Shown here in pieces: positions 10,064 through 28,503 of a stretch of DNA of 31,660 bases (position 1 is its first letter; every line of letters begins with the position of its first letter). The stretch spans positions 1 to 31,660 of the forward strand of contig JAYTHU010000113.1 in the NCBI GenBank assembly GCA_043732305.1, written 5' to 3'. Made by a program: the position numbers and the translations under genes. Source of the DNA: Oligoflexia bacterium. Its GTDB lineage: Bacteria > Bdellovibrionota > Bdellovibrionia > JABDDW01. A model generated the notes under the pieces. That model saw nothing but the letters and a program-made list of their open reading frames with translations, was not told where the DNA came from and did not search any database.

Positions 10064-10530
10064 CTACTTTCTCCTCGATGAATAGACGTTATCCAGCATT
10101 TCTTCGATCTGAGGGACCTCAATTCTGAGATCCTCCGTTGCTCCCTCAATATCCGTAAGCGCTCCATCGCGCCCATCTTTTCAGCTTTCTTTTTTATGGC
10201 ATGATAGAGGATTTGGCGGGCTCAGGAGAAGTTCGGTGAGTCTTTCGTAGTCATCTGCAGTCTTGGTTGGTCCTTCGCCATTGTACCAGTCCAGGCTTTG
10301 CTGATGTTGATCTTGCCAGTGACAAGGTCAACGTCGGTCCACCTGAGGCTGTACAATTCACCGGAACGCATTCCAGTGAGAAGGGCAAGGGTCCAATGGG
10401 GAAAAAACCTGTGTTCTGTGTTTCTCGCCTCTCTCAGCAAAATATCAATTTCATTTCTGTTGAGAATGGCTTGATTGACTTCACCACACCTAACTCGAAT
10501 TCCTACGGCTGGGACATTTGTAAGTGAGCT
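10064..10530 (-). pseudogene. Tyrosine recombinase/integrase remnant
   Basis: ILNRNEIDILL...LALLTGMRSGELYSLRWTDVDLVTGKINISKAWT (box I with catalytic Arg); frameshift to YNGEGPTKTA; then C-terminal DIEGATEDLRIEVPQIEEMLDNVYSSRRK*. The N-terminus and the HxxR/Tyr region are missing. Confidence 0.85.
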
Positions 10531-10747: not shown

Positions 10748-10993
10748 TTGAATCAACACCAACACATTCTTTCGAGTTTGGAGGAGGGGACCTATTTGGT
10801 AACCTTGCATGCACGTAGAAGAATGGCTGAAAGGAATATCGCTCATTCCGACATTCGCGAGTGTGCGCGAACTGGCAAAATATATGATCAGGCAGATGGG
10901 AAATTTAAGGTTAATGGCTCTGACTGTGATGGCTATGAGATAAGTATAATTTGCGTTGAAGATAATGGCGTTTTAGTTGTCACAGTTTTCTAA
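10748..10993 (+). CDS. DUF4258-family putative type II toxin
   Basis: TLHARRRMAERNIAHSDI...G...VLVVTVF pattern typical of DUF4258; TTG start with strong SD; lies upstream of an HTH gene. Confidence 0.8.
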   Translation: MNQHQHILSSLEEGTYLVTLHARRRMAERNIAHSDIRECARTGKIYDQADGKFKVNGSDCDGYEISIICVEDNGVLVVTVF

Positions 10994-11005
10994 AAGGAGA
11001 GTTGA

Positions 11006-11416
11006 GTGAAAAAATGGAAAGAAAATCTCGATGGTCTAGTAGCGCTAGATTATATTCATTTTACTAGCGTTCCAATGAAGGATTCCAAACATGGACCTGT
11101 GATTGATCTTGCACCCGAAGTTTTAGATCGCTTAGCAGCGATGGCTGTGATCATTGAGCGTATTCCTCTCAGGGGACTTGAGGTGAAATTTTTAAGAAAA
11201 GCATCTGGACTTTCTCTTGAGAAATTTGCAAATAAGATTGGTTTGACCTCGGGTACAGTTTTTCATTGGGAAAAAGCCGAGGAACAACGGCTTACTCCTG
11301 TGAATGAAGCTGCGGTGAGAGCCTTGCTTGCGGAAGAATTGGGCATTGATATTTCTGGTAAGTTTTCTCAGCTTCTGGGAGACCGGCATCATGACATTGA
11401 TGTCAAAGCGAGTTGA
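11006..11416 (+). CDS. XRE/MqsA-like HTH antitoxin
   Basis: LRGLEVKFLRKASGLSLEKFANKIGLTSGTVFHWEK HTH; AAGGAG SD; 12 bp after the toxin. Confidence 0.8.
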   Translation: MKKWKENLDGLVALDYIHFTSVPMKDSKHGPVIDLAPEVLDRLAAMAVIIERIPLRGLEVKFLRKASGLSLEKFANKIGLTSGTVFHWEKAEEQRLTPVNEAAVRALLAEELGIDISGKFSQLLGDRHHDIDVKAS

Positions 11417-11890: not shown

Positions 11891-12298
11891 TTATTTATCT
11901 CCTGTTTGATTATTTTGTTTTCGATTTGATTGATCATTAAAAATTGATGAGCCCCGTTGGCTTGCACCCGAGCCAGAATCATTTTGATAGCCTGGGCTTG
12001 AATTAAATCCAGTGACGCCGAACTTCTCTAAATTGAAAAGGGTGTCTTGTCTGACTTGGGCATCACGATCTTCAATACCCTGATGGGTGAAGTAACCCGC
12101 GATACCTCCGATGACGGCCATGCCGAGCGCGCCGTACATGGCGCCCTGGCCGCGATCTTGACTGTTAAGCATTGCCCCGCTAGCAGCGCCGAGTGCTGCT
12201 CCGGTTCCAATTCCTAGAAACGTGGACTTTGTGGCTGTCGCACAGCCACTCATTAATATACAAACCAAACTTGCACATACCATCTGTCTTTTACTTAT
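11891..12298 (-). CDS. Glycine-zipper lipoprotein (T4SS-associated)
   Basis: Lipobox LMSG-C; GxxxG zipper GIGTGAALGAASGA...GALGMAVIGGIAGY. AAGGAG SD lies 6 nt before an in-frame ATA at 12298; the first ATG is at 12283. Confidence 0.75.
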   Translation of the reverse strand: MSKRQMVCASLVCILMSGCATATKSTFLGIGTGAALGAASGAMLNSQDRGQGAMYGALGMAVIGGIAGYFTHQGIEDRDAQVRQDTLFNLEKFGVTGFNSSPGYQNDSGSGASQRGSSIFNDQSNRKQNNQTGDK

Positions 12299-12528
12299 AG
12301 AATTCTCCTTGAATAAAATTTTTATTTCTCCTTAGTCCAAGCCGGTTCATAAGCCATGATCCCCAAAGCTTATTCCCTCAACTTCACCTCATACTGTCAT
12401 TCCCATCTCGTCTTCCGCGCCCAAATACGTCAATCAACTGATGCCAACACAAAATGCGCTATATCCCTGACTCCCCCTCAAAAGCGCCTCGCCGGTTTCT
12501 GTAGTTTCCATAACTTAGCTGACGTTTG

Positions 12529-12560
12529 GGTACTATACGTATAGGACCTGAATAGGACCC
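12529..12560. other. Palindrome plus direct repeat downstream of the relaxase-like gene; candidate oriT element
   Basis: GGTACTATAC|GTATAGGACC near-perfect palindrome with perfect core CTATACGTATAG (12533-12544); ATAGGACC repeated at 12541 and 12552. Confidence 0.4.
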
Positions 12561-12572
12561 TCGATGGACGAG

Positions 12573-13325
12573 TCAACTCATCTCAAAACAACCATTATTG
12601 CGGTTAAGAAATGTCAAAACAAAATCTTCATTTTTCATTTTTTGAAATTGGCAAATGAAAATTTTAGGATTCAGTTTTGCTGCAACAATCTGTTCTGCCT
12701 GGCGAATGGCTGACTCAATTTCGGCTGTGGTGCAAACGTAAAAAACCGCGTTTATCTTAGAGGATAGATAGTAGTCCCGAAGTTTTCTTACATATCGCGA
12801 TACGCTCTTGGGACTGCTTTCAAATTCAAACGCTACGTTGATTTTGCCGATCTTGGTGTCCAGAACCAGAGCCGCGTCGGAATTTAGTAGAACAAACGGT
12901 CTAAATTCTTCCGACTCCTGAAATTGTCCACAGGCTTGTAGAACATTTTCTGGAAAGTAGCCCGCCACCATTTTTATTTTTTTAAGGCGCTTTCTCAAAT
13001 CCATAAGACATAAATCATGAACAATTGAATCACTTTTGCAGATAGGGTTTGTCACTGGAAGCGGATAAACTTTGGCGACCACTTTCAACCCCTTTTCATT
13101 CAAGCCATAAATTGCTCTCAACTTGTTTTGATGGAGTCCTCCAGTTTTTGTTAGATAACCAGCTCTGTACAAAATTTCGAGACGATTGTGAACAGTCGGT
13201 TGACGGCAACCTTTAAAAAAGTTCTCGCCAATTTGCTCCCTTGTTGCCACTCTATGCTCGAAGATAAGTTGCAAGATCGAAATATCCCGCTGGCTCAAAA
13301 TTACCCGTGGATTCCTTCGACTCAA
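12573..13325 (-). CDS. Replication-relaxation family protein (MOBC-like putative relaxase)
   Basis: N-terminal wHTH RDISILQLIFEHRVATREQI; HDL motif; PD-(D/E)xK-like SDAAL...AFEFESSPKS..RY..KLRDY; TTGA overlap with the FtsK gene. Confidence 0.8.
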   Translation of the reverse strand: MSRRNPRVILSQRDISILQLIFEHRVATREQIGENFFKGCRQPTVHNRLEILYRAGYLTKTGGLHQNKLRAIYGLNEKGLKVVAKVYPLPVTNPICKSDSIVHDLCLMDLRKRLKKIKMVAGYFPENVLQACGQFQESEEFRPFVLLNSDAALVLDTKIGKINVAFEFESSPKSVSRYVRKLRDYYLSSKINAVFYVCTTAEIESAIRQAEQIVAAKLNPKIFICQFQKMKNEDFVLTFLNRNNGCFEMS

Positions 13326-14827
13326 TCGGTTTTTTTGACAGTCACAAGAGTATTGATGTTCGTATCTGCCTCTTTGTTTTCAATTGAAACGTCCAGCATC
13401 GGGCCAAAACATCTACCTTCATCGCCCGCCATTTTTTCTGCCAAGACTTTGCATTCTATATCAAGTTCCTCCTCTGAAAGAAACGGCGTCTGAACTTCAA
13501 GAAATTTATTCCCACCATTCCAAATGGCCCGACCTTTAATATCGGGAAGTGCGTAAGCATCAACATTTCCGAGGGCCGTGTTAGAGCCCGCGTGGGTGGA
13601 CATCTTAAATGCAATTCGACCATTTAGATTTTCAAGGGTCTTAGTATCCAGAGACTCTTTTACGGCCTTTTGAGTCGCCATAATGATATGAATGGCAGCG
13701 GCTCTGGCAAGTTTTGCCAATTCGTCGGTCAGCTCTCGGGCTTCAGCTACTATTTCTTTTTTAGAGCTTTGGCTTGAGACCTTGCCATACAAGACCGACG
13801 CTTCATCAACCGCGAGTACAATCAAATCCATTTTATGAACAGAGGGTTCAATTCTCTTGATTCCCTTTTGCTCCATGAAAACAAAACGCCTGTGCATTTC
13901 TTCTCGGATCTTCTTTAATACTTGAACGGCCTCCATCTCATCTTTTGCCACTCGTACATTGGGAAGCTGGCTAAATTCTTTCACCTCAACGCCGCGCTTG
14001 AGGTCAATTAAATACATCTGCATTCGCGGAGAGGTTCTTAATAAGCACACAAGTAACTGGCGAAAGAAAAAACTTTTCCCGCCGCCGGTGCTACCTGCAA
14101 TTAGCAAGTGGGGAAGCTCTCGCAGTTCTTGAACGATAAGACCAAAGACAGATTCTCCGACGACAAAGGAATATGGCTTTTTCAGTAGTGCCACAACTTC
14201 GCCAAAATGGAGCATCCTGGTAAGTTCTTTTTTGCATAAAAGAATGCTAATGGTCTGCCGATCTGCCGATGCGGTCACACCCTCTACAATTTGACCAAAA
14301 GAGAATTCAAGGTCCCCACGCTTGGCTTCAAATTTATCAACGCCGATACCTTTGCACTTAATAATGAGCTTTGATTTGCTCTCGTTTATGGCTATTGCAT
14401 GGACTACCTTTGGCGTTTTCCCTTGGGCATTACGCAAGCCTACGGTGTCCAGGTCCTTTTGAAACCGGCGGCGCTGGAAATACAGCCTCACACCCATGGC
14501 CATAAGCCCGCCCCACGAAGTCAAAACTAGTAGCAAAACAAAGTGCCAGGCACGCGCAAACCTTCTCAAAAAGATAACGACCGTTGGCGTGAATGCCGAG
14601 GGCCAAATGAAATGCAGACACTTCAAATAGGCATAGTCACCAAACGTAATTGCAAAAATCACCAAGAAAATGGACGCTGCAACAATTAAAAACTCCTCCG
14701 AGCGAAACTTGATTTGCTTAAAGCCGGTCCATGCAAGACCACCACTCCAACATAAAATCTTAAAAATACCCTTAAAGAACTGACCAGAATTTCCGCCGCT
14801 CTTTGCAGTATTATTTTCCATTGCCAC
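13322..14827 (-). CDS. FtsK/SpoIIIE-family ATPase with N-terminal TM helices (TcpA-like coupling protein)
   Basis: PHLLIAGSTGGGKS (Walker A), IDLKRGVE, LAVDEAS (Walker B), RAAAIHIIMATQK, IKGRAI. Confidence 0.9.
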   Translation of the reverse strand: MAMENNTAKSGGNSGQFFKGIFKILCWSGGLAWTGFKQIKFRSEEFLIVAASIFLVIFAITFGDYAYLKCLHFIWPSAFTPTVVIFLRRFARAWHFVLLLVLTSWGGLMAMGVRLYFQRRRFQKDLDTVGLRNAQGKTPKVVHAIAINESKSKLIIKCKGIGVDKFEAKRGDLEFSFGQIVEGVTASADRQTISILLCKKELTRMLHFGEVVALLKKPYSFVVGESVFGLIVQELRELPHLLIAGSTGGGKSFFFRQLLVCLLRTSPRMQMYLIDLKRGVEVKEFSQLPNVRVAKDEMEAVQVLKKIREEMHRRFVFMEQKGIKRIEPSVHKMDLIVLAVDEASVLYGKVSSQSSKKEIVAEARELTDELAKLARAAAIHIIMATQKAVKESLDTKTLENLNGRIAFKMSTHAGSNTALGNVDAYALPDIKGRAIWNGGNKFLEVQTPFLSEEELDIECKVLAEKMAGDEGRCFGPMLDVSIENKEADTNINTLVTVKKTD

Positions 14828-15734
14828 TGCGGTAACCTCCAGTGAGAGAAATAATCACGTCGCTGCCCTCGGAGACAGTCACATAGTCGGGAATCTGGGC
14901 CAGTTTTTCGGCCTGGCGATTGGCCTGCATTTCAGTGACTTTAGAAAGCCCGTTGTAAACCCCATTTTTTAGCGTCGCTTTGGGCGTCGATTCAAAAGAG
15001 TTTCCGAGTCCTTCTTTCTCAACCATGATCTCAGACATACCGCTGACCATTGAGAGCCCCACAACCGAGGCCATTTGGCTGCCAGTGTTGTTGTGAAAGT
15101 CACCTATGATACCAGGGGCGTAATCTTTGCTACTCAAGCCCCGAGCTTGCAGGACAATCTCTTGGCCGTCGGGAAGTAACCCGTGATCAAAGGTCAAATA
15201 GACACGTTCGTCGTGACCTGGGTAACTCACTTGGCCAAACAAAATCGTTGCCGGTGGAAATGCGCCGTTGCCATTTTTATCACTACCTCCGTAAAGCAGA
15301 GTCACTTGCACCGTTTGAGGCGATCTAGTGTCGATGCCGGTGAGGAGTTTTCCGATAAAGCTTGTCCCTATACTGATTTGATCCGCACCTTCTCCAGGGG
15401 TGATCACCTGCTTGGCTTTGTACTTAACCACTATTCCTCTGCCGGAACCTTTCGTGGGCCTTTGAGGTCCGTGACTGCCGACGCCACCCAAACCAGGGGA
15501 TGATTCTGGCCCAGGTTTTGACGGTGGAGTTTGCGATTTTACGAGCGGAGCATCGCTATGCTTGATCGAACTGTCATCTTCTTTAAAAAAAATAGCAGGA
15601 ACCAGTGAACCCGCAATCCCCAACGACATCGCCGCCACTGTTAAAATAGCCACGTTCTTCTTATTGATAACATTTTTTCCGCCCTCTTCTCGCAACAGAA
15701 ATTTCTTAAACCATCCTTTGATTCGAGAAATCAT
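14811..15734 (-). CDS. TrbI/VirB10-like T4SS core protein
   Basis: Single TM helix, Pro/Gly-rich linker, beta-rich domain ISIGTSFIGKLLTGID...FPPATILFG...RVYLTFD..LLPDG...GIIGD; position in the operon. Confidence 0.75.
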   Translation of the reverse strand: MISRIKGWFKKFLLREEGGKNVINKKNVAILTVAAMSLGIAGSLVPAIFFKEDDSSIKHSDAPLVKSQTPPSKPGPESSPGLGGVGSHGPQRPTKGSGRGIVVKYKAKQVITPGEGADQISIGTSFIGKLLTGIDTRSPQTVQVTLLYGGSDKNGNGAFPPATILFGQVSYPGHDERVYLTFDHGLLPDGQEIVLQARGLSSKDYAPGIIGDFHNNTGSQMASVVGLSMVSGMSEIMVEKEGLGNSFESTPKATLKNGVYNGLSKVTEMQANRQAEKLAQIPDYVTVSEGSDVIISLTGGYRSGNGK

Positions 15735-16468
15735 AGAAATTTACCAGCAACAGTTTGTTGAACTTCGACTTTCTTTAAACGTAAATTCATCGAAAAACTT
15801 TTTTGCTTGGGTAAATTCACAAACAAGCGTCCATAGGTAGTTTTGCCGGAGCTCACTGTCTTATCTTTGAGAACAAACTCCTGCGGCGAAAACTTGATCT
15901 TTTGACCACTTGCTGAAACTTTCAAATCCTCAAGGGAAACTGCGTTCAGGCTTGGATTTTGAAAACCCAAGTCAATGATATAAAAATCTCGCTTCTCGAA
16001 ACGCTGTATTTTCAAAACGGCCACATTCAACTTCACCAATTTAAAAATCAAATTGGGCCTGGAAACCTCGTGAATCACAGACGAAGGAGACGAAGCAAAG
16101 CCCATTGTAGACGCGGCCTCTTTCCACCGGACTTGAACAAGATCGTCATAGGCTCCTTGCCCAGTATTCTTGAGTAAAAATCCGTAGACACTCTTTGTCC
16201 CATATACAAACAAGTTTGTGGCAACAGCCCCCTGGGGTTGAATGGCCACATCGTTGTCAATGAACTCAATGGAATAATAATTTGAATTTCCGAGAACTAC
16301 TTTCTTGGGCTTCTCAGGAAACCGGAGCACCGTGGATTCACCCATGCGCAAATTGATCGGAGCCATGGTGGTACTATCAATATAGATTGTTCGCACCGTT
16401 CCTGCCCAGAGCTGCTCAGATTGAATGAGTAAGCAAAGAACAGAGACCAACCAGAATTTAAAACTTAT
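15731..16468 (-). CDS. TrbG/VirB9-like secreted T4SS protein
   Basis: Signal peptide (SFKFWLVSVLCLLIQSEQLWA); INLRMGESTVLRFPEKPKKVVLGN...TNLFVYG VirB9/TraK-like N-domain. GAGGGG SD lies 7 nt before an in-frame ATA at 16468. Confidence 0.7.
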   Translation of the reverse strand: MSFKFWLVSVLCLLIQSEQLWAGTVRTIYIDSTTMAPINLRMGESTVLRFPEKPKKVVLGNSNYYSIEFIDNDVAIQPQGAVATNLFVYGTKSVYGFLLKNTGQGAYDDLVQVRWKEAASTMGFASSPSSVIHEVSRPNLIFKLVKLNVAVLKIQRFEKRDFYIIDLGFQNPSLNAVSLEDLKVSASGQKIKFSPQEFVLKDKTVSSGKTTYGRLFVNLPKQKSFSMNLRLKKVEVQQTVAGKFL

Positions 16469-16469
16469 A

Positions 16470-17066
16470 CTATTTCCCCTCGTGGAAAGTTTCACCGTTG
16501 ACGTAAAGTCCGAGTGGATTCCATTCGGAGGCAGATCCACGAGCTAAATCAAATGAAACTTGAGTGGGAACGATCAACGGAATTCCGTCTACATGCAAAA
16601 CCACATCAAAAATAGCAACGGTCGCGTCTTTTGTTACCTGAACGGAAAGTCCTGAAACGTCTTGCTTGATGGTTTTACCTAAAAACTGCTTTTCTTTGCG
16701 CTGTTTTAAAAGAGAAAATTCCTTGGCCTTAAACCCATCAGTTACAAGTGGTGCAATGTCTTGAGTAATTTTATCCGGCTCAAGGGCGCTCCACTGATAA
16801 GAAAGCTTCACATACTTCTCAATAAATCTTTTGATTCCGGCCTCGTTTAACTCCACATTTGCTCGATGACCCTGAAAATAAAAATAATCATCACCTGTGG
16901 CCATGGCCACAATAGGTTTGCGACTTGCCATCATCATGCAGAGACACGTCAATAAAACGCAGACAGCCGCAAGAGCTACCCCCGCTGCTTTATAAATGAA
17001 AAGTAGACGATTGAGCGCACTCCATTGATTCAAAACATTACTTTCTGTTGTTTCTTTCGGTTGCAA
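16470..17066 (-). CDS. VirB8/TraE-like bitopic T4SS protein
   Basis: One N-terminal TM helix; IKRFIEKYVKLSYQW; C-terminal NPLGLYV hallmark of VirB8-like proteins; AAGGAG SD with TTG start. Confidence 0.8.
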   Translation of the reverse strand: MQPKETTESNVLNQWSALNRLLFIYKAAGVALAAVCVLLTCLCMMMASRKPIVAMATGDDYFYFQGHRANVELNEAGIKRFIEKYVKLSYQWSALEPDKITQDIAPLVTDGFKAKEFSLLKQRKEKQFLGKTIKQDVSGLSVQVTKDATVAIFDVVLHVDGIPLIVPTQVSFDLARGSASEWNPLGLYVNGETFHEGK

Positions 17067-18033
17067 ATTTCTTTCTCCTTTCTTTTTTTATTAATTCTTT
17101 CGCCGAATCGGGAAGACCGGCTTCAGAATATTTGTTTGCGAAATTCTTTAAATGCGGATGCACTCGGCTGGCAAAAACTTTGGCCCTTCCTGAAATGGGA
17201 TTGGTTAGTGGTTTAGCTAAAAATCCAGCGGCCCCCAATGCTCCACCGGCCATTTTTGCTCCGTGCATTTTGGTCGCTACCATCGCAGCTTTCGCAAACA
17301 TCAATCCAGGTGCCGCCGCAAGAGCAGAAGACGCTGATTGCAAGCCGTCACCCAAAAGTGATTTCGTAAAAATTGGGATGAGCAGCATACAAATACCAAT
17401 GAGTAAATTCATCACCATGGATAAAATGTAATCATCTGCACCCGTGACCTCTGGATTGAGAGCAAGCTTGAGCAAAAGTGACCCGAGAAGCGTCCACAAA
17501 ATTTTCCAAGTCGCAACGCTAATGAGTCCTCTATAAAGATTGCCGACAATTCCAGCGGTGGATCTGGGGATGTAGCAAAGAAGCATCAGGGGCGCACAGA
17601 TATACAAAATTGCCCAGACAAAGTGCATAAGTGCAATGGATGAAAAAAATCCGATATAGGCAATCAAGTAAGCACCGATCGAAAAGAAGTAAATGATATG
17701 CCCTCGCAAATCAAAAAGACTTCCGCCGCTTTCACCTTGGGAGTTCGGCCCAAGATGCTTGATTTCGTCCCACAATGTCTGAGTCTGATCTATTTTGGAT
17801 GTGATACCGTCGCTCAACATCGCAATCAGATTGATGACTGTGCTGAACGACAACAAAAGCAATATCGAAATGACCGTCCGTCTCAAAAGGTCGTTGATGT
17901 TCGGCTGTTGATCAGAACTTTTGAGCAATTCAAAGACAACCAAAAGAGCCACCAGAGGAGGGAGAAGGGTCCAGTAAATACCGACCATCTCCCCATTGAG
18001 GCTCTTTGCATACAGATTTAAATTATCAAACAT
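17038..18033 (-). CDS. VirB6/TrbL-like polytopic membrane protein
   Basis: About six hydrophobic segments, ILYICAPLMLLCYIP motif, Ala/Gly-rich C-terminal tail; sits between B5-like and B8-like genes. Confidence 0.75.
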   Translation of the reverse strand: MFDNLNLYAKSLNGEMVGIYWTLLPPLVALLVVFELLKSSDQQPNINDLLRRTVISILLLLSFSTVINLIAMLSDGITSKIDQTQTLWDEIKHLGPNSQGESGGSLFDLRGHIIYFFSIGAYLIAYIGFFSSIALMHFVWAILYICAPLMLLCYIPRSTAGIVGNLYRGLISVATWKILWTLLGSLLLKLALNPEVTGADDYILSMVMNLLIGICMLLIPIFTKSLLGDGLQSASSALAAAPGLMFAKAAMVATKMHGAKMAGGALGAAGFLAKPLTNPISGRAKVFASRVHPHLKNFANKYSEAGLPDSAKELIKKERRKKFATERNNRK

Positions 18034-18036
18034 CGG

Positions 18037-18723
18037 CTAAAATTTTGCGAGATTCGTATCGAGTTTGAAATTCTGAAATCCACTGGCAAGATCGCTGTCA
18101 AAGCGTTGATAGCTTGTGACTTCATCCTTGCCTTGCTTGTTCTGCATGGCCAGTTGCTCACTCTGAAGCTTAAGCATTTGCGTGTTGACTCGGATAAGCT
18201 GCGACAAACTATTTAAAATCTGTCCGCTGGCCTCGGCCTGCATCCGTGCCGCCCCTTTGGGAGAAGCCTCACGACTTTGCACTAAAATCTTAATCGAGTT
18301 CTGCTCTTGCTGATCCGAGTAGTCTTTGAACGAGTTGGCCATACGAATGCTCTCGGCCACAGTTTGATCGTTAAGAAGTTGGAGCGCTTGCACCTTGCTT
18401 TTTGGAACTCGTCCATAGAGATCTGAAACTTTATCCATGGCAGATTTGAAATTTTGCAACTCCGCCATGATTCGCTCATCCCTCACAGGAAGGGCATTCA
18501 AAAGACCGATGGAGTTTTCAATTCCAGAGTTCACAAGCCGCAAATAATCTTCTGTGCTTTTTCCCTGCTGAATCATCATTTGAAACTGTTGGTAGTGCTT
18601 GATGTTTTCAGCAAGAATTTGAATTAAAACGGCCACGTCTCCGCCGAAGAGATCTGCGCGTGCCATGGGGGTTAAAAGAAAAATGGTCAAACCAAGTATC
18701 CGTCCGAAACGGAAAATTTTTAT
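18037..18723 (-). CDS. VirB5/TrbJ-like secreted helical protein
   Basis: Signal peptide ending PMARA-DLFGGD; Gln-rich coiled coils; SPKGAARMQAEA. GGGAG SD lies 7 nt before an in-frame ATA at 18723. Confidence 0.65.
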   Translation of the reverse strand: MKIFRFGRILGLTIFLLTPMARADLFGGDVAVLIQILAENIKHYQQFQMMIQQGKSTEDYLRLVNSGIENSIGLLNALPVRDERIMAELQNFKSAMDKVSDLYGRVPKSKVQALQLLNDQTVAESIRMANSFKDYSDQQEQNSIKILVQSREASPKGAARMQAEASGQILNSLSQLIRVNTQMLKLQSEQLAMQNKQGKDEVTSYQRFDSDLASGFQNFKLDTNLAKF

Positions 18724-18776
18724 ATGTGGTCTCCCGTTAAATTTGAGAAATTTTTGGTACGATTCAAACTATTGAA

Positions 18777-19982
18777 TTAATCACCTATTGGTGTGGATAT
18801 AAATCTTTTAACTTTTTCAATATCGAAAACCGGACCCGTCGCCCAGCGAGGTAGATCTGCTTGCGTATACAAGCTGATACGAAACTCTCCTCTTTGTTGT
18901 AGTCCATTGCTGTTATATTCTGAATCCGACACAAAATTTATTACCTTGTTATTTATAAAATATAATTCCTTACTCGATGCGCTTTTAAGATACTCTTCCG
19001 TTTGTTCCAGATAGTTATTGCATCTCGCAACTTCTAGCAAAATATCAGTCTGGCAGTTGGTACTCAACTTAAAATTAATTTTCACCTCTATCGAGCGGAC
19101 AAGAAAATTCTTTTTCGAAGCAAGCAGTTCTCTATTAAATGCAGACGGAATCATCCAATTTTGAACCGTTAAGGAATCAGATTTCCTCGCAAATTTTAAA
19201 AACTTTGCATTCTGATAAATAGAGACGGCTGGGCTGAACATTCCAGAAATTGTCGCAACAATTACTTCTTGGTTCGCATTTTTGGCATCCTTGCAGATAA
19301 CCGCTCCGCCGGAATCTCCATAGCTAATATTTTTATCTAAGGGCAAAGTCTCAAGCTGCAATCCAAATCTTGCATTTGTAGAAGGCCCGATGTTTTGCAC
19401 CTGTCGAAAATAAATTTCCGAATCGACATTTACTTCAGTTCCAAATTTTATCAAATCACCCCTAAAGGTTCTAATGGCACATTCGCCTGAGATGAGTCGC
19501 TTGAACTCAGTCTTCTCCAGCGCGATAGTGGGAGTTTGCCCGATAAATGGGGTTTCGGGATCAACATTGAGCAAGCCCATGTCCGTATTCACCGCGCCGC
19601 CAACGCCGGTTTGCTCACCTTTTTTAAATTCCTCCAACAAGTCTGGTGGAATTGCAGCAAGATCAAATTTGATCAAGGTCGAATTAAATTTTGGATGAAT
19701 GATCGCATTCATAACTCGGTGTTGTAACTTTTCAAATGGGCAGCTAACAGTGGTTTGAAGTTCTTCATTTTGAATGTAGGCTGCTCCAAAGTAGGCACAG
19801 TGAGCGGCGGTTAAAAATTCCGTAGGACTTATAAATGTTCCCGAGCATTGATGTGTCGTCTTCCCATTAACTTGAAACTGCAACAAACAAGAAGCTAGAT
19901 TATCTTTTTGAGTATCGAAGGCGAGACACTCAAATGACAATAAGCTAGTCAAAAGACAAATTACGGCACTAGTTTTTAACAT
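18777..19982 (-). CDS. Secreted trypsin-like (S1) serine protease with C-terminal extension
   Basis: CSGTFISPTEFLTAAHC (His), DMGLL (Asp), GDSGGAVIC (Ser); signal peptide; GAAGGTG SD. Confidence 0.9.
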   Translation of the reverse strand: MLKTSAVICLLTSLLSFECLAFDTQKDNLASCLLQFQVNGKTTHQCSGTFISPTEFLTAAHCAYFGAAYIQNEELQTTVSCPFEKLQHRVMNAIIHPKFNSTLIKFDLAAIPPDLLEEFKKGEQTGVGGAVNTDMGLLNVDPETPFIGQTPTIALEKTEFKRLISGECAIRTFRGDLIKFGTEVNVDSEIYFRQVQNIGPSTNARFGLQLETLPLDKNISYGDSGGAVICKDAKNANQEVIVATISGMFSPAVSIYQNAKFLKFARKSDSLTVQNWMIPSAFNRELLASKKNFLVRSIEVKINFKLSTNCQTDILLEVARCNNYLEQTEEYLKSASSKELYFINNKVINFVSDSEYNSNGLQQRGEFRISLYTQADLPRWATGPVFDIEKVKRFISTPIGD

Positions 19983-20036
19983 TGGAAATCACCTTCTCTA
20001 ATGAGGCATTACTTAAATCTAATAAAAGTCAGTAAG

Positions 20037-20052
20037 TGCAAAGGGCGGACCG
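20037..20052 (-). promoter_or_regulatory. Candidate sigma54 (-24/-12) promoter for the protease gene
   Basis: Minus strand CGGTCCGCCCTTTGCA = GG-N10-GC with TTGCA, about 55 nt upstream of ATG 19982. Confidence 0.5.
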
Positions 20053-20108
20053 ACCATATAAAAACTTGAGATCAAATATAACATCGTTGAGGTACCTAAA
20101 ATATGAGT

Positions 20109-20432
20109 TCAAATCAAAAGTCCCCACCTGCTTTTGAGGGCTTCGATAACGGCATTTTGAAGTCTCGGTTGCATCGCAAACGCCCGCTCGAAAGGGTCTG
20201 CCCCTTCTGTAATTTGATCTGACCAAATTGCCTTCGCCCAGGCGATGGCCCCTGAGTGACCACCGCCGAAATCATTTTGAGAAATGCTATACCAGTCGAT
20301 TTCTTGGCTTTGCATATTCAAATGGGTTAGTGCCTTTCTTTTCAATTCATCATCGGCATTGAAAATTAGCAGGACGGCCTTTAATTCTCGCGACAAATTT
20401 ATAAATGCCTTTTCAGTTTCAAAATTATTCAT
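20109..20432 (-). CDS. Hypothetical protein translationally coupled to VirB4
   Basis: ATGA overlap with the VirB4 stop; 107 aa; no motif recognised. Confidence 0.7.
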   Translation of the reverse strand: MNNFETEKAFINLSRELKAVLLIFNADDELKRKALTHLNMQSQEIDWYSISQNDFGGGHSGAIAWAKAIWSDQITEGADPFERAFAMQPRLQNAVIEALKSRWGLLI

Positions 20433-22870
20433 GCAGCTTCCTTTGCTTCTGTGGGTTCAAACGCTAATTTTTTTAGAATTTCAATCTTCGTCAGTTCAGG
20501 ATGTGCTTTCTCCATCTCTTGAATCTTTGCTTTGTCGGCAGCGTCGCTGGTGCAGATCCAGTAAGACAAGGGCTCCGGCACTAATCTCAAAATAGATTGG
20601 TTTTCATCTTGCAGAAAAAACAATTCGCTATAGGCACCCTTTATCACTTGAAGACTCTTGATGGCCTCGACCTGAGCATCGTTAAAATCAAAGATCTCTT
20701 GGAAGTCCTTCCAATCAATTTTTCTCTGCCGCAAAATAATCACGCTTGATGAATTGGGCATGAGGGCATCGCGGATCTCGGGATCAGCCAAGAAGTCCCG
20801 ATAGTTCTGGCTGATGCACCAAATTCCGGCGTTATATTTTCTCCAGGTCCTATAACAGGTGATAATGAACTGCTTCGCCAACTCTCCACTTTTGAAAAAC
20901 CTTTCCGCCTCGTCACAAATAAGCAAATAGGGTCTTGCTAGGTCCGCCGATGCTGCGTCTTGAATGAACGCCGTTAAAAGCAAAAGCAGAATGTCTTTCA
21001 GCTCAGGGTGGTTGGTGAGACCTTGAACTTCAATGGTCACTAAATCTTTGGTGAGTGTGATTGTGCTGGGTCCATCTAAAAGTCGTCCATAAGCCGTGCT
21101 GCCGGTGCAAGAAAAAAGAATCTGTCCACACTTTTGCATTTCAATGTCTTTGTGATGGTCTAAAATATTTTTTAGATCAGACAAATAAGGAACTCGCCCA
21201 ATGGTTTTGTGATAGGCCTCAAAGATCGTTTCCTCAAGCATGGCCTTCTCGCGTTTCCCCAGAGACTTTTGATCGGTGTCCTTGAGAATTAATTCAAGAA
21301 CAGCCAAAATCATTTTTATTCTTGCCGGTGATGGAGTGGTCTCACCATTTGGCAGATCAAAAACATTGATACGAAGGCCACTCTCTAAATTCAAATCAAC
21401 GAACTCGCCATCAAGGCATTCCAGAAGGCGTTTTGAACTCGCACCATTATCAATCCAAAAAATTCTTGGCGTATTTTTTTGGCCATAAAACATGAGCATC
21501 AATTGGCAGAGGGTAAAACTTTTTCCCGAACCCGATCCGCCAAATATTAGCCCGTTCCAGTTCGGCAGCTCCTTTGCAAACGGATCAAAAGAGAAGAGAC
21601 TGCTTTCTCGGTTCGGAATCAAACACACTGGCTCTTGGTTGCCGGCCCAACTTCCATAGAGCGGGAGCAAATGAGCAGCGTTGCTACTTTTCATTTTATG
21701 CTGGCGGAGGCCAGTGCAGGTCCCAGGCAAAGCTTCGATAAAAACATCAAAGCATGGGAGAGTTTCGACAACACCCTCGGCCTGACCCATAGAGCGAAAG
21801 GCCTTTAAGACCTCGTCGGAGCGTTCTTCAAGTTCAATTTTAGACTTGGCCCAAATGATCACGGCAAAATCCATGGAGACCAGGCGCTCACTGCCTTCTA
21901 AAAGTTCACGCAGCAGACTTTCAATGTCGGCAAGCTTTGATTCACTTTCTAGATCACTAACATTTTGTGAGCCGGAGGCCATAGCACTGGCCACACGTCG
22001 TTTAAGCTCCAGACGCTCTCGCTCTTTTGTCTGATCTAAAATACGGATATTTTGGCTGCTCCAAAAATGAAATGGCAACGCCGTTGCAAGTCCCGCCACC
22101 ATGGAGCTGTAAGTGCTACCTTCTGGCAGGGTTTTGAGCGTGATGGTACGGAAAAAATAATCGCCCATCCGCAGATGATCTCGATGAACCTCAATATCTG
22201 TCAGAGTCAGTTGCTCAATCATGGATGGTGAGAACAAATCTTTATTCTCACGCATTTCGGGCACCCCTTGGCTTTCAGAGCGGGCAAGATTTAAATATTC
22301 AAAACAGAGATTGAACCACTCTTTTTCTGTAAGTGACCGAGGCGAAAGTTTCGTATTTTCAAGGGAGGATTGAATTTGCTTAAGCGCACGTTCGAACTTT
22401 TCACGATGAGCCTGGTACTCAGCCGCACTCATGGTTTCATAAAGCTTTGGAGCCTCCCAAAGTTTTCTTTTTCGATATGAAAATGGACGGCTTCGCACAA
22501 ACAGAAAAAATTCAGGGATGAAATATGATTTACTCTCTGCATTCTGTCTTAAAAAAGAAAGCCTAGCTTCAGCTACAGGTTGATAGACTTTTGGTGCCGC
22601 CGATGAAATTGCCTCATGTTCTGAAAGCAATTTCTCAACGCTTGGTGAGACTCGATAGAAAAGTTGGAGCCGTAAACCCTCTTCTGCTGAAATCAAAAGA
22701 TTTTCGATTTGGCGGTTAAAATTATTAATTTCTTCTTCTGGGAGACAACCAACATCAAAACCCGTAAGCTTGAATGCTCCACCGAGGGAACCGTCGGCAT
22801 AAACCATGAGTCCGTCATCGAAATGCCAAAATGGCAGACGATCAGCCAGAGAATTGATTTTATTTTTCAT
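20429..22870 (-). CDS. virB4: VirB4/TraC-family conjugation ATPase
   Basis: NGLIFGGSGSGKS (Walker A), IDNGAS, INVFD, LICDEA (Walker B), RKYNA..CISQ; 813 aa; follows B2/B3-like genes. Confidence 0.92.
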   Translation of the reverse strand: MKNKINSLADRLPFWHFDDGLMVYADGSLGGAFKLTGFDVGCLPEEEINNFNRQIENLLISAEEGLRLQLFYRVSPSVEKLLSEHEAISSAAPKVYQPVAEARLSFLRQNAESKSYFIPEFFLFVRSRPFSYRKRKLWEAPKLYETMSAAEYQAHREKFERALKQIQSSLENTKLSPRSLTEKEWFNLCFEYLNLARSESQGVPEMRENKDLFSPSMIEQLTLTDIEVHRDHLRMGDYFFRTITLKTLPEGSTYSSMVAGLATALPFHFWSSQNIRILDQTKERERLELKRRVASAMASGSQNVSDLESESKLADIESLLRELLEGSERLVSMDFAVIIWAKSKIELEERSDEVLKAFRSMGQAEGVVETLPCFDVFIEALPGTCTGLRQHKMKSSNAAHLLPLYGSWAGNQEPVCLIPNRESSLFSFDPFAKELPNWNGLIFGGSGSGKSFTLCQLMLMFYGQKNTPRIFWIDNGASSKRLLECLDGEFVDLNLESGLRINVFDLPNGETTPSPARIKMILAVLELILKDTDQKSLGKREKAMLEETIFEAYHKTIGRVPYLSDLKNILDHHKDIEMQKCGQILFSCTGSTAYGRLLDGPSTITLTKDLVTIEVQGLTNHPELKDILLLLLTAFIQDAASADLARPYLLICDEAERFFKSGELAKQFIITCYRTWRKYNAGIWCISQNYRDFLADPEIRDALMPNSSSVIILRQRKIDWKDFQEIFDFNDAQVEAIKSLQVIKGAYSELFFLQDENQSILRLVPEPLSYWICTSDAADKAKIQEMEKAHPELTKIEILKKLAFEPTEAKEAA

Positions 22871-23165
22871 AAATTTTAAATCCTATGCGGTCACTGTGAT
22901 GTGATTTCAGGGCGGCGGAAAAGTGACCAGGGGTGATGTAGTACCTAACCAAGTGGAGCAAAAAACCGTCGGGTTTGTTCCGCTTTCCAAAATAAAGAAC
23001 GAGAAGAGCCGCCGACGGAACGCCCAGAACAAGAACCGTCGGAAGCTGAAAGAAATTAATCACGGCAGCCAAGATGAGTGAGGCAATCAGATCGAGGGCT
23101 TCCATGCCCCCAACCTTCATGCGCACATCTAGGCCACGGTGAACCGTGGACTGAGATAGCTCCAC
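22860..23165 (-). CDS. VirB3/TraL-like membrane protein
   Basis: VHRGLD..MKVGGMEALD, two TM helices, KRNKPDGFLLH; lies between the pilin and VirB4. Confidence 0.75.
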   Translation of the reverse strand: MELSQSTVHRGLDVRMKVGGMEALDLIASLILAAVINFFQLPTVLVLGVPSAALLVLYFGKRNKPDGFLLHLVRYYITPGHFSAALKSHHSDRIGFKIYEK

Positions 23166-23495
23166 CTAAAACCCCGAACCCACGGCGGCTTGAAGCCAGT
23201 GAATCACGACGGGCGCCAAGAGACCGACCGCACAGGCAATCAAAACTAAAATCATCCTGGCTTTCGAGCTTTGATCTCCGCTGGCCGCCAGAATCGCGCT
23301 GTAAACCAATCCCAAAATTGAAATGGCGGGTAAGATCGTGCCAATGATCTTACTCGTGAGCCCATTCACCCTCTGTGCGAGGGGGTCCGCCCCAATGCCG
23401 CCAAAGTCATCGGCGAAAGCCATGTGGGGCGCAAAGAGAAAAATTCCAAAAATGCCTGCAACCAGGCACACCGTCCACAAAGTGGATGGTTTCAT
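23166..23495 (-). CDS. TrbC/VirB2-like pilin
   Basis: Signal peptide ending HMAFA, then two hydrophobic helices separated by the short loop GDQSSKAR. Confidence 0.8.
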   Translation of the reverse strand: MKPSTLWTVCLVAGIFGIFLFAPHMAFADDFGGIGADPLAQRVNGLTSKIIGTILPAISILGLVYSAILAASGDQSSKARMILVLIACAVGLLAPVVIHWLQAAVGSGF

Positions 23496-23497
23496 TC

Positions 23498-23833
23498 TTA
23501 GCTTTGTGTCACCAAGACTAACCGCTGTGGCAAATAGCGCCCAATTTTTATGAAAATCTGATTGTTGGTCTCTTGGCTCGAATAGCCAGAGCCGACTTCC
23601 ACGCGGTGAGAGAATTTGCCGTTGATGTCAATGGGAGCGTGGACGACGTAATCAATCCTATCGGCGCAAGCTTCTTTGGGGCGCAAGTAGAGCACAGTGC
23701 GAGGAGCATCGAGCACCATTCTATACTCGCCGAACTCTTCAATGAAAAATGCGACGCCAGCATGAAATGTTTCACCTGTCTGTGGGTCCATCCAAACGAG
23801 GTCTTCTTTTTTCTGCTTTTTTAAATTTTGCAT
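23498..23833 (-). CDS. Hypothetical beta-rich cytoplasmic protein
   Basis: GGAG SD and ATG; ends 2 bp before the pilin start; duplicated (A/V)G-x-(A/G)-(F/Y) strand pattern. Confidence 0.7.
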   Translation of the reverse strand: MQNLKKQKKEDLVWMDPQTGETFHAGVAFFIEEFGEYRMVLDAPRTVLYLRPKEACADRIDYVVHAPIDINGKFSHRVEVGSGYSSQETNNQIFIKIGRYLPQRLVLVTQS

Positions 23834-23894: not shown

Positions 23895-24173
23895 TTAGAA
23901 GATGGAACCGTTTTTAAGATTCAGTCTTGATTTGTTGATTGCGTCGAGTTTTAGCTCCACTGAGCGAAGACCCACATGAAGCCTGGCGAGTCCTCGGTGA
24001 ATCAAAGAGACAACATCTTCTCTTTTGATTCCGGCGCTATGGGCAATTTCAACATAGTTGGCCTTCTCCCAAAAGTGCATGTAGATGGCGAGCCTCTCCA
24101 GATGGGGAAGTCTCGTGATCCGGTCTCTAATCAAAGCTTCTTGCGCAATATTTGTTTTTTTAAAACTTTGCAT
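23895..24173 (-). CDS. Stand-alone sigma70 region-4-like HTH protein
   Basis: LPHLERLAIYMHFWEKANYVEIAHSAGIKREDVVSLIHRGLARL matches the sigma r4 pattern; GGAGGGG SD before ATG 24173. Confidence 0.75.
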   Translation of the reverse strand: MQSFKKTNIAQEALIRDRITRLPHLERLAIYMHFWEKANYVEIAHSAGIKREDVVSLIHRGLARLHVGLRSVELKLDAINKSRLNLKNGSIF

Positions 24174-24184
24174 TTTCCCCTCCA

Positions 24185-24325
24185 TCAATGTCTCAAATAC
24201 ATGAGGCGATATCTAAGTTGCTCCTCTTTGATTCTTGCGAGCTCCGTCTCGTTGATTTCAGACTTGAGCCAAAAAATGTAAATGCGTTTGGCCAATGACT
24301 TAATGCGGTCAAATATTTTTTTCAT
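24185..24325 (-). CDS. 46-aa small protein (not in ORF track)
   Basis: AAGGGG SD, then MKKIFDRIKSLAKRIYIFWLKSEINETELARIKEEQLRYRLMYLRH*; fills the gap between two operon genes. Confidence 0.65.
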   Translation of the reverse strand: MKKIFDRIKSLAKRIYIFWLKSEINETELARIKEEQLRYRLMYLRH

Positions 24326-24542
24326 TTTTAGCCCCTTTTGGAAATGGAATGATGTCTGCGTTCTTGTCTGATCTTTTTCGCTTTCGTCTTAGCGGAAGGA
24401 TATTTTCAATACTCACCACATTGTCTGATGGCTCACTCGCTTCTCTGGCAACTTCTTGTTGGTCAGCCTGCTGAGTTTCAAGGTGAAGACTGCGTGGACT
24501 AATATTCATCGCCATTATTAAAATCGAATGGGTCCAACTCAT
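24309..24542 (-). CDS. Hypothetical 77-aa protein
   Basis: ATGA overlap with the TraR/DksA stop; low-complexity, basic C-terminus. Confidence 0.55.
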   Translation of the reverse strand: MSWTHSILIMAMNISPRSLHLETQQADQQEVAREASEPSDNVVSIENILPLRRKRKRSDKNADIIPFPKGAKNEKNI

Positions 24543-24976
24543 GCGGCCCTCGCACCAATGCAGAGGCTAAAGAGTCTCTCTGGCGTAATCCATGCGACAT
24601 TGTTGACGGACTTGGTGCTTGGCCGACCTTCCTCGGTTTGTTTGCAGCTCACGCAGCACGCAGCGCTGGGCAGAGCAGCTAAGCGTCTTGGGTCGATCAA
24701 TTCCCCACAAGATACGCATTCGCCGAAAGTGCCTTGATTGATCCGTGCTAGAGCATTCTGCAATTGACCTCGACGGACCATATTGCCCTCGTGAATCTCA
24801 ATGCGTGCAGCGAGGTCACTCTGCTCTTGAGCGTGATCCATTCCGTCTTGCAAAAAATTGGTTTGTTTTTCCGTTGCTTCCACTAGATCAGTTTTAAAAA
24901 CTGAAATGGCTTCTTCGACTTGAGCTAGGCTCTTTGTAATTTGAGAACTAAAATTGATTAACTGTTCTTTGTTCAT
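24539..24976 (-). CDS. TraR/DksA family C4 zinc-finger transcription factor
   Basis: Coiled coil with DGMDHA (DxxDxA tip); ALARINQGTFGECVSCGELIDPRRLAALPSAACCVSCK zinc finger. Confidence 0.92.
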   Translation of the reverse strand: MNKEQLINFSSQITKSLAQVEEAISVFKTDLVEATEKQTNFLQDGMDHAQEQSDLAARIEIHEGNMVRRGQLQNALARINQGTFGECVSCGELIDPRRLAALPSAACCVSCKQTEEGRPSTKSVNNVAWITPERLFSLCIGARAA

Positions 24977-27135: not shown

Positions 27136-28503
27136 TTATTCCAAGCTCGGTCTCATTCCCATCCGCGTAAGCATCGTGTGCAATGATGACGCCTTCATTC
27201 CAAGGCGTTCAGCCGCGTGCTGGACCGACTTTGAATTACGGATGGTGTAGGTGATGAGTTGTCGGCGCTCGCGCTCCTGCCGCCCCTCTAGCTGCTCAAT
27301 AGTGGTTTCTGAAGTTGCGGTGGCCTCCAGCGGAAAGTTTTCTTCCAAAATCTTGTCATCAATTTCTTTGCGGGTGCTCTCTGTAAGTGCGGCGGAGACA
27401 TAACCGTCGAGTTCGCCCACGTTGCCAGGCCAACTGTACTTTTCTAAATACCTAATAGCTCGCTTAAGAAATTCTTTGCGTTCACCAGTTTCTCTAAAAT
27501 ACTTTTGGCAGAAATGAACCACCAAGGGCTCAAGGTCCTCGGGGCGCTCTCTAAGCGGCGGTATCTTGACCGTTAGAAATTTTATTCTGTAGTAAAGATC
27601 ACGCAAGAAACTTCCGTCGGCCACGCGCTCTTCAATGTCGGGCCAGCTCGAAGCGATCAGTCTGAATTCAACTGATTCCTCACGAGCGCCACCAACCCGC
27701 CGAATCTTTTTCTCACGAAGCGCACGCAATAATTTTCCTTGCGTGGGACCATCTAGATAATGAAGTTCGTCGAGATAGACAGTTCCGCCGCGTGCTAATT
27801 CCAAAATTCCTACTTTGCGGGTCGTGGCTCCAGTGAAGGCCCCTTTTTCATGACCAAAAAGTTCTGATTCCACAAGGCTACTGTTTTGAAAGGCCGCGCA
27901 GTTGACAACAAATAATTTATCTGGTGGCCCAACATGAAGCGCTTTAGCCACCATTTCTTTTCCTGAGCCAGTTTCTCCTAAAATTAAAATTGGCTTATCA
28001 CTTGAGCGGAATTTTTGAATTTTCTGAACGACGCGAGCCAGTCCCTCCGAACATCCCACCATGCCAATGGAAGCGATGAGTTTGGTGGCCTCAACTGCGG
28101 TGAGCGGCGGCTTGGCCTTTCGATATTTCTCAAATTCGACGCAAGCATCGGCAACAGATGAATTGAAATAATTTAGATCTTCATTCTTCTCGATAAAATT
28201 GACAACGCCAGCGCGAATCGTCGCCCGCATTGACTCCACAGATGGATAAGCGGAGTACATGAGAATTACCGCTTCATCGTTGAGGGTACGAATCTCTGTA
28301 GCTACCTCAGCGCCATTCTTATCCGGCATCTTGTAGTCTAAAATGATAACGGCATATTCTTTACTGCTAGATCTGACGCACTCGATAGCGTCATTGCCAC
28401 AGACTGCGGTGTCCACATTATAGCCCCAGCGGCGCAGAAGATCCTTGGTGGTCGAAAGATTCTCCGCTTCATCGTCAACAAGCAAAATATCATAATTGAC
28501 CAT
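27136..28503 (-). CDS. NtrC-type sigma54-dependent response regulator
   Basis: REC (LLVDDE, LDYKMP), AAA+ (GETGSGKE, ESELFGHEKGAFTGA, LDEL, WPGNVGEL), Fis-type HTH. GGAGG SD places the start at ATG 28503. Confidence 0.95.
   Translation of the reverse strand: MVNYDILLVDDEAENLSTTKDLLRRWGYNVDTAVCGNDAIECVRSSSKEYAVIILDYKMPDKNGAEVATEIRTLNDEAVILMYSAYPSVESMRATIRAGVVNFIEKNEDLNYFNSSVADACVEFEKYRKAKPPLTAVEATKLIASIGMVGCSEGLARVVQKIQKFRSSDKPILILGETGSGKEMVAKALHVGPPDKLFVVNCAAFQNSSLVESELFGHEKGAFTGATTRKVGILELARGGTVYLDELHYLDGPTQGKLLRALREKKIRRVGGAREESVEFRLIASSWPDIEERVADGSFLRDLYYRIKFLTVKIPPLRERPEDLEPLVVHFCQKYFRETGERKEFLKRAIRYLEKYSWPGNVGELDGYVSAALTESTRKEIDDKILEENFPLEATATSETTIEQLEGRQERERRQLITYTIRNSKSVQHAAERLGMKASSLHTMLTRMGMRPSLE

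Follow-up and report, generated by a model that had tools for sequence, protein, structure and literature searches.

A 31,660-nt stretch of an Oligoflexia bacterium (GenBank assembly GCA_043732305.1, contig JAYTHU010000113.1, positions 1-31,660; hereafter the window) contains a member of a family of integrative conjugative elements (ICEs) of the phylum Bdellovibrionota, predatory bacteria of the Bdellovibrio type, in which several genes of a conjugative type IV secretion system (T4SS) have ATA, ATT or ATC at the site of the start codon. We call these codons ATH (AUH in the mRNA, for AUA/AUU/AUC), ATG, GTG and TTG canonical, and the Shine-Dalgarno sequence SD. The ATH codons occupy the position of ATG in sister elements, lack an alternative start in part of the genes, precede reading frames under purifying selection, are a property of the element and are constrained at the third base. 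They are probably real near-cognate starts that keep minor envelope subunits at a low level.

Three genes of the window are concerned:

18037-18723, minus strand: VirB5/TrbJ-like exported protein, 228 aa from ATA 18723; SD GGGAG 18735-18731, spacer 7 nt
15731-16468, minus strand: VirB9, 245 aa from ATA 16468; match to the TrwF profile (E 1.8e-9) and to TIGR02781 (E 4.4e-5); SD GAGGGG 16481-16476, spacer 7 nt
11891-12298, minus strand: glycine-zipper lipoprotein, 135 aa from ATA 12298, lipobox Cys = residue 19; SD AAGGAG 12310-12305, spacer 6 nt

The in-frame ATA codons, SD sites, 6-7 nt spacers and signal peptides described for these genes in the original prediction, which was made from the window alone, were all found. 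The earliest canonical codon of the VirB5-like gene is TTG 18690, which lies within the hydrophobic region (h-region) of the signal peptide. For VirB9, whose ATA stands one base beyond the TAG of VirB8 (16472-16470), the alternatives are GTG 16495 with a weak SD (-3.2 kcal/mol) and TTG 16450 with no SD. The lipoprotein has a canonical alternative in ATG 12283, without SD (-1.1 kcal/mol), and an upstream ATT 12319 with an SD equal in length to that of ATA 12298; the orthologs favour 12298 as the probable start. All three ATA sites are covered in Logan contigs of two sequencing runs with no alternative letter, the two runs coming from a single study that may represent the source samples and contigs being prone to lose rare variants. 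The contigs of both runs have a loose end at 11939 (window 11891-11940), which suggests a variant or shared sequence there.

The ortholog set comprises 112 loci including the window, 105 of them with a match to the VirB5-like protein; a six-gene tree of 99 loci divides into clade A (68 loci, including the window; support 0.988) and clade B (31 loci; support 1.0). Six loci had too few genes for the tree and were not curated, and L005, whose N-terminus lies in another frame, was omitted from the VirB5 curation. In a test in which the best SD was chosen first and the codon read afterwards, ATH was in frame in 26 of the 47 clade-A VirB5-like genes that have an SD, where the two other frames gave 2 and 3, and in none of 26 genes of the distant group (this test used an earlier, identity-based clade split that placed L104, L109 and L111 in clade B). 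For the lipoprotein the corresponding figures were 17/37 in frame and 1 and 7 out of frame. Starts were also curated by eye and deduplicated at 90% identity. The 53 clade-A VirB5-like starts then comprise 24 ATH (12 ATA, 9 ATT, 3 ATC), 23 canonical (12 ATG, 6 TTG, 5 GTG), 4 ambiguous and 2 possible TTT, and the 38 clade-A lipoprotein starts 16 ATH (7 ATA, 9 ATT), 20 canonical (19 ATG, 1 GTG) and 2 ambiguous, while in clade B the lipoprotein starts with ATG in 17/17. A non-canonical start is thus kept across orthologs as first proposed, except that the conserved class is AUA/AUU/AUC and not AUA alone. The T-ATA-A context, which is common to the three window sites, is likewise not conserved among the orthologs.

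ATH occupies the aligned position of ATG, GTG or TTG in sister elements, with a next residue that is mostly K, R or N, and it lies mostly 17-18 codons upstream of the lipobox cysteine and 20-28 codons upstream of the VirB5-like cleavage site. In 10 of the 24 VirB5-like genes with an ATH start and in 7 of the 16 lipoprotein genes, the stretch from the upstream stop to the h-region holds no in-frame ATG, GTG or TTG that could supply a signal peptide; for the lipoprotein of L067 the wrong ATA was picked in this analysis. In two further VirB5-like genes, those of L107 and L108, TTT and then an n-region rich in K/R come after an 8-nt SD, and a canonical codon is lacking; this may be a UUU start, an analogue of UUG.

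VirB9 is the weakest of the three cases. By curation, ATH stands at or beside the VirB8 stop in about 10 loci of a few lineages, L003 having the exact layout of the window. A strong SD followed by ATH was also found at VirB8 in 4/49 genes (ATA or ATT, one with ATG beside it), at VirB10 in 5/44, and, with ATA, at a serine-recombinase-like gene of one subclade (L091, L092, L093 and L095; in L092 and L093 right after an in-frame stop). The feature is therefore not limited to exported components, contrary to what had been supposed. It was not seen at VirB2, VirB3, VirB4, VirB6 or a conserved 111-aa gene among the analysed loci, and it is rare in clade B (L112, L113), where automatic ATH calls in L141 (twice) and L132 have a canonical codon nearby and were read as canonical.

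The genes that begin with AUH are under strong purifying selection. Pairs in which both members have ATH gave dN/dS values of 0.01-0.07 for the VirB5-like gene (7 pairs) and 0.06-0.10 for the lipoprotein (4 pairs), similar to VirB4 and VirB6, apart from one nearly unchanged pair at 0.29 and several saturated pairs. By parsimony the VirB5-like gene switched 6 times between canonical and ATH and changed 6 times within ATH; for the lipoprotein the figures are 4 and 5. On the tree, the third base of the start codon changed 9 times in the VirB5-like gene, compared with a mean of 18 at four-fold sites, none of 25 sites being that low; in the lipoprotein it changed 8 times against a mean of 19 (0/34 sites that low).

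Relaxed initiation throughout the host was considered and rejected. A genome scan of 1211 long open reading frames (ORFs) lacking a canonical start plus SD gave no ATH-specific excess: SD plus ATT, ATA and ATC occurred in frame 21, 11 and 9 times and out of frame 9 and 5, 12 and 4, and 8 and 4 times, and CTT was equally in excess. An SD of at least 5 nt precedes 32 of the 105 lipoprotein candidates in the genome; these comprise 26 canonical starts, 5 others and 1 ATH, which is the window's own gene. The genome has other copies of the element, and in these the matched genes start with ATG, GTG or TTG. The trait travels with the element. Three host genes (G000:C66:8261, C147:1479 and C62:77005, all on the plus strand), a protease-like gene and two for signal-peptide proteins, have SD plus ATT or ATA and no good canonical start; for two of them orthologs were uninformative, one having none and the other paralogs that match the core only.

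How such starts would act can be outlined from known systems. The initiator tRNA would pair with the first two bases of AUA, AUU or AUC, assisted by a normal-to-strong SD at the best spacing of the host, and the proteins would be made with complete signal peptides at a reduced rate. In the ICEs of clade A, AUH probably serves as a fixed throttle, set gene by gene, that acts mainly on genes with their own ribosome-binding site (VirB5-like and lipoprotein), sometimes on VirB8, VirB9, VirB10 or the recombinase, and leaves the pilin, VirB3, VirB4 and VirB6 untouched; minor envelope subunits would stay scarce as a result. Initiation at the AUH codons is what their sequence setting suggests, and the reduced output would follow from other bacteria. 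In Enterococcus faecalis the ATT start of EbpA gave about 3.5-fold less reporter than ATG, that is about 30% of AUG (PMC4447247), in Staphylococcus aureus the output of AUA and AUU was about 10% of AUG (PMC13009471), and in Escherichia coli that of AUH was 1-2% of AUG (10.1101/063800). Scarcity of these subunits would presumably also supply the selective reason for the starts.

Several observations weigh against this reading. In the SD-first test VirB9 was at background, with ATH in frame in 8/34 and off frame in 9 and 4. The elements are related, so that the counts overstate independence, and parsimony gives just the 6 and 4 switches mentioned above. ATG makes up just 1 of the 28 VirB5-like ATN starts in the core subclade (3.8% of 52 sites are as low), a point in favour of the reading, but this subclade is weakly supported (0.55), and the 4 lipoprotein switches between G and H at the third base are not clearly rarer than neutral, with 15% of 34 sites as low. 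Likewise in favour, an aligned SD spacing of 3-5, the host mode, was found at 37/40 ATH sites as opposed to 10/38 canonical ICE starts; these counts are partly circular as they are based on starts curated by eye. The SD energy at ATH starts was not significantly stronger than at canonical starts (p 0.40 and 0.20), local mRNA structure was not weaker, and about half of clade A functions with canonical starts. Finally, an AUA mRNA was translated in vitro at 0.95 of AUG in rich-medium extracts and at 0.56 in minimal-medium extracts (PMC5499595).

A pertinent question is whether the AUH genes respond to the ratio of initiation factor 3 (IF3) to ribosomes as infC does, so that assembly of the mating apparatus is finished only in a particular physiological state, such as growth inside prey. 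IF3 discriminates against AUA, AUU and AUC (PMC5499595), and the output of the AUA start of S. aureus ccpN varies with the medium (PMC13009471). The host infC itself (G000:C228, minus strand, 5854) starts with ATC after GGAGGT, with an ATG 3 codons further on, and was among the top results of the genome scan; in the phylum, where 16 of 31 loci were parsed, ATH (ATT, ATC or ATA) is the start of 9 of the 12 callable infC genes. On the other hand, addition of IF3 hardly altered AUA translation in vitro (PMC5499595), and close relatives replace ATH by TTG or GTG, codons that IF3 accepts. The ATH states of the VirB5-like gene and the lipoprotein are not linked (both in 9 loci, one only in 8 and 6, neither in 8), and no accessory gene family of at least 5 loci follows the ATH state across the clade. 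Such regulation is unlikely, although it deserves to be taken seriously, and the same modest credence applies to its broader form, a switch shared by the whole clade in which host start-codon proofreading by IF3 would act on a pilus-tip-like protein, on the lipoprotein and on core subunits that vary, their starts being AUH and perhaps UUU. If true, conjugation would be tied to the growth phase of the predator without a regulator encoded by the element.

We regard near-neutral drift as quite doubtful. It supposes that little protein is needed and that any ATN after a good SD is tolerated, so that the third base wanders. Exchange among A, T and C at the start is indeed about as in synonymous Ile codons (14/22 pairs identical, 11.3 expected), the lipoprotein switches are compatible with neutrality, and canonical and ATH elements coexist. 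However, the third base is overall far more stable than four-fold sites, ATA to ATG, a single transition, was not seen in VirB5-like pairs at dS of at least 1.7, neither clade B nor the host genes show such drift, and the four-fold sites of clade A are not markedly richer in AT.

That selection has silenced a domesticated or dying element, the starts being knock-outs, had been raised in the original prediction and is very improbable. The window integrase is a broken remnant, as this would lead one to expect. Yet dN/dS of the AUH genes equals that of VirB4 and VirB6, AUH starts occur in 43 loci (duplicates counted) from two classes and in many intact elements, the matches of the window transfer genes extend over the whole of their profiles, and a check for short ORFs in ATH elements flagged VirB2 alone, a length artefact. 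It is more remote still that the ATH encodes an internal isoleucine, translated through readthrough, frameshifting or initiation elsewhere. An SD near a codon can stimulate frameshifting, as in prfB, but many orthologs have an in-frame stop 3-8 codons upstream, the preceding gene is not always the same (it is a trypsin-like gene in the window), and in sister elements this position is occupied by ATG. An assembly error or a C-to-T mutation of ATG in TC context, the latter likewise proposed at the outset, can be practically dismissed, even though the window sites are all ATA with A at +4: the contigs of two runs agree, ATT and ATC stand at the same site in other assemblies, A at +4 is no more frequent than after canonical starts (20/24 after ATH, 18/22 after canonical), and the TC-context change is rejected because ATT and ATC cannot result from a single such step.

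In SD spacing, want of an adequate alternative, ATG in homologs and purifying selection, the VirB5-like gene and the lipoprotein would fall by their sequence into the class of AUH-attenuated genes of the ebpA/pcnB/ccpN type, VirB9 doing so by curation only. The closest likeness is to ebpA of the E. faecalis pilus tip, a minor pilus subunit with a good ribosome-binding site and a signal peptide that is complete only from the rare start (ATT), where a downstream canonical codon was mis-annotated as the start and other species have ATG (PMC4447247). In contrast, ebpA is one sortase-pilus gene on the chromosome, with an ATT that is fixed in a single species and proven experimentally (PMC4447247), whereas the ICEs, known here from sequence alone, have several conjugative T4SS genes with three interchangeable codons and repeated switching across the phylum. 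infC (AUU/AUC/AUA) and E. coli pcnB (AUU) share the codon class (PMC5499595, 10.1101/063800), and infC of this phylum also shares the interchange within AUH; infC differs in its feedback through its own product, and no such loop is visible in the ICE genes, whose products are not translation factors. S. aureus cvfC1 (AUU), ccpN and citZ (AUA) have conserved AUH, a well-placed SD and reduced output (PMC13009471), of which the last would apply to the ICE genes by analogy. These S. aureus genes are chromosomal and single and have extended SDs (PMC13009471), unlike the ICE genes, whose SD energy is not significantly above that of canonical starts. Translational damping of a T4SS is known from the gonococcal genetic island of Neisseria gonorrhoeae, with RNA switches at traH and parA (PMC8716806). 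There the means is RNA structure and not AUH codons. TraK and TraB of that island are reportedly present at low levels, and traK and traB are said to have alternative starts.

In the papers cited, AUH starts amount to a handful of single genes per genome, and no report of AUH starts in conjugation genes, or of their spread across a conjugation machine, was found in a literature search that left subscription papers and supplements outside. No prior description of the ICE family was found in the literature searches run. The family offers a natural series, dozens of orthologs in which a single site is ATG, GTG, TTG, ATA, ATT or ATC and has switched several times independently, which makes the choice between throttle, IF3-linked switch and drift directly testable by reporters in cultured Bdellovibrio. 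It also exposes a systematic annotation error. The database entry for the window VirB5-like protein (P0090) has 217 aa from TTG 18690, and among the best 120 database homologs 72 are annotated with 16 residues or fewer before the cleavage site, so that starts placed too far downstream hide the signal peptides. Comparable cases in other mobile elements would go unnoticed likewise.

As to the identity of the proteins, the label VirB9 is borne out by the TrwF profile. The label VirB5 agrees with position and with language-model features in the Atlas (0.90-0.91 to TrbJ/VirB5 clusters) and lacks a specific counterpart in sequence or fold: no VirB5 match was obtained in Pfam, PDB sequences or a fold search, which returned generic helical hairpins for a predicted all-helical model (pLDDT 71). 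The lipoprotein had been taken for a T4SS component. Its family has glycine-zipper matches in 52/55 members and weak TraT matches in 16/55, which agrees with a glycine-zipper lipoprotein and assigns it no role in the secretion complex. The window member lacks a C-terminal PxV..W..G..GH..W segment that is present in many orthologs, and which may resemble TraV. In L014 and L015 low-complexity repeat expansions lie within the signal-peptide regions of the VirB5-like protein and VirB9.

The other features of the element in the window are as follows:

23498-23833, minus strand: conserved 111-aa gene, only in clade-A elements; Atlas lead only, DUF736 at 0.79
23166-23495, minus strand: VirB2 pilin, PF04956 E 3e-6; canonical start
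22860-23165, minus strand: VirB3-position gene, named by position; canonical start
20429-22870, minus strand: VirB4/TraC ATPase; ATG start
17038-18033, minus strand: VirB6-position membrane protein, named by position; ATG start, no family match
16470-17066, minus strand: VirB8-position protein, named by position only; TTG start after a strong SD, no family match
14811-15734, minus strand: VirB10/TrbI, PF03743 E 6e-15; ATG in the window
13322-14827, minus strand: FtsK/SpoIIIE-type ATPase, PF01580 E 2e-20; likely coupling protein by presumed role
12573-13325, minus strand: Replic_Relax-type relaxase, PF13814 E 6e-10; TTG start
10090-10500 (approximate limits), minus strand: broken tyrosine-integrase remnant, not an intact integrase

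The operon order is VirB2-3-4-5-6-8-9-10, followed by the FtsK-type ATPase, the relaxase and the lipoprotein, with VirB3, VirB5, VirB6 and VirB8 named by position. The conjugative T4SS set found in the window consists of VirB4, pilin, VirB9, VirB10, the putative coupling ATPase and the relaxase. The order is that of R388 Trw and pKM101 Tra, and VirB9 is homologous to TrwF/TraO; the ICE differs from both in its FtsK-type ATPase and Replic_Relax relaxase, and neither VirB11 nor VirB1 was seen in the window. None of the window proteins reached the cut-off of an NCBIfam T4SS model, and PLSDB plasmids gave no match. All 16 of the named relatives belong to Bdellovibrionota, and a VirB5-like match is present in 113 of 401 genomes of the phylum. 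Related loci have serine-recombinase-like (50 ORFs) or tyrosine-integrase-like (22 ORFs) genes, the family names being taken from motifs; given its integrase remnant, the window copy may be immobile.

A trypsin-family gene and a 107-aa ORF (18777-20432) separate VirB4 from the VirB5-like gene, which adjoin each other in close relatives such as L001. Upstream of the operon, at 27136-29938 and 23895-24976, lie a response-regulator-like and sensor-like pair, a sigma-70 region-4 protein and a DksA/TraR-like gene, which are candidate regulators; the response-regulator-like family recurs in 25 loci of clade A and 5 of clade B, the sensor-like family in 16 and 3. A scan for promoters and terminators was at chance level. 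A small gene pair at 10748-11416 on the plus strand, with a helix-turn-helix protein last, resembles a toxin-antitoxin system, the putative toxin being suggested by the layout only. An ISAs1-family transposase with an N-terminal extension is encoded at 30274-31581 on the plus strand.

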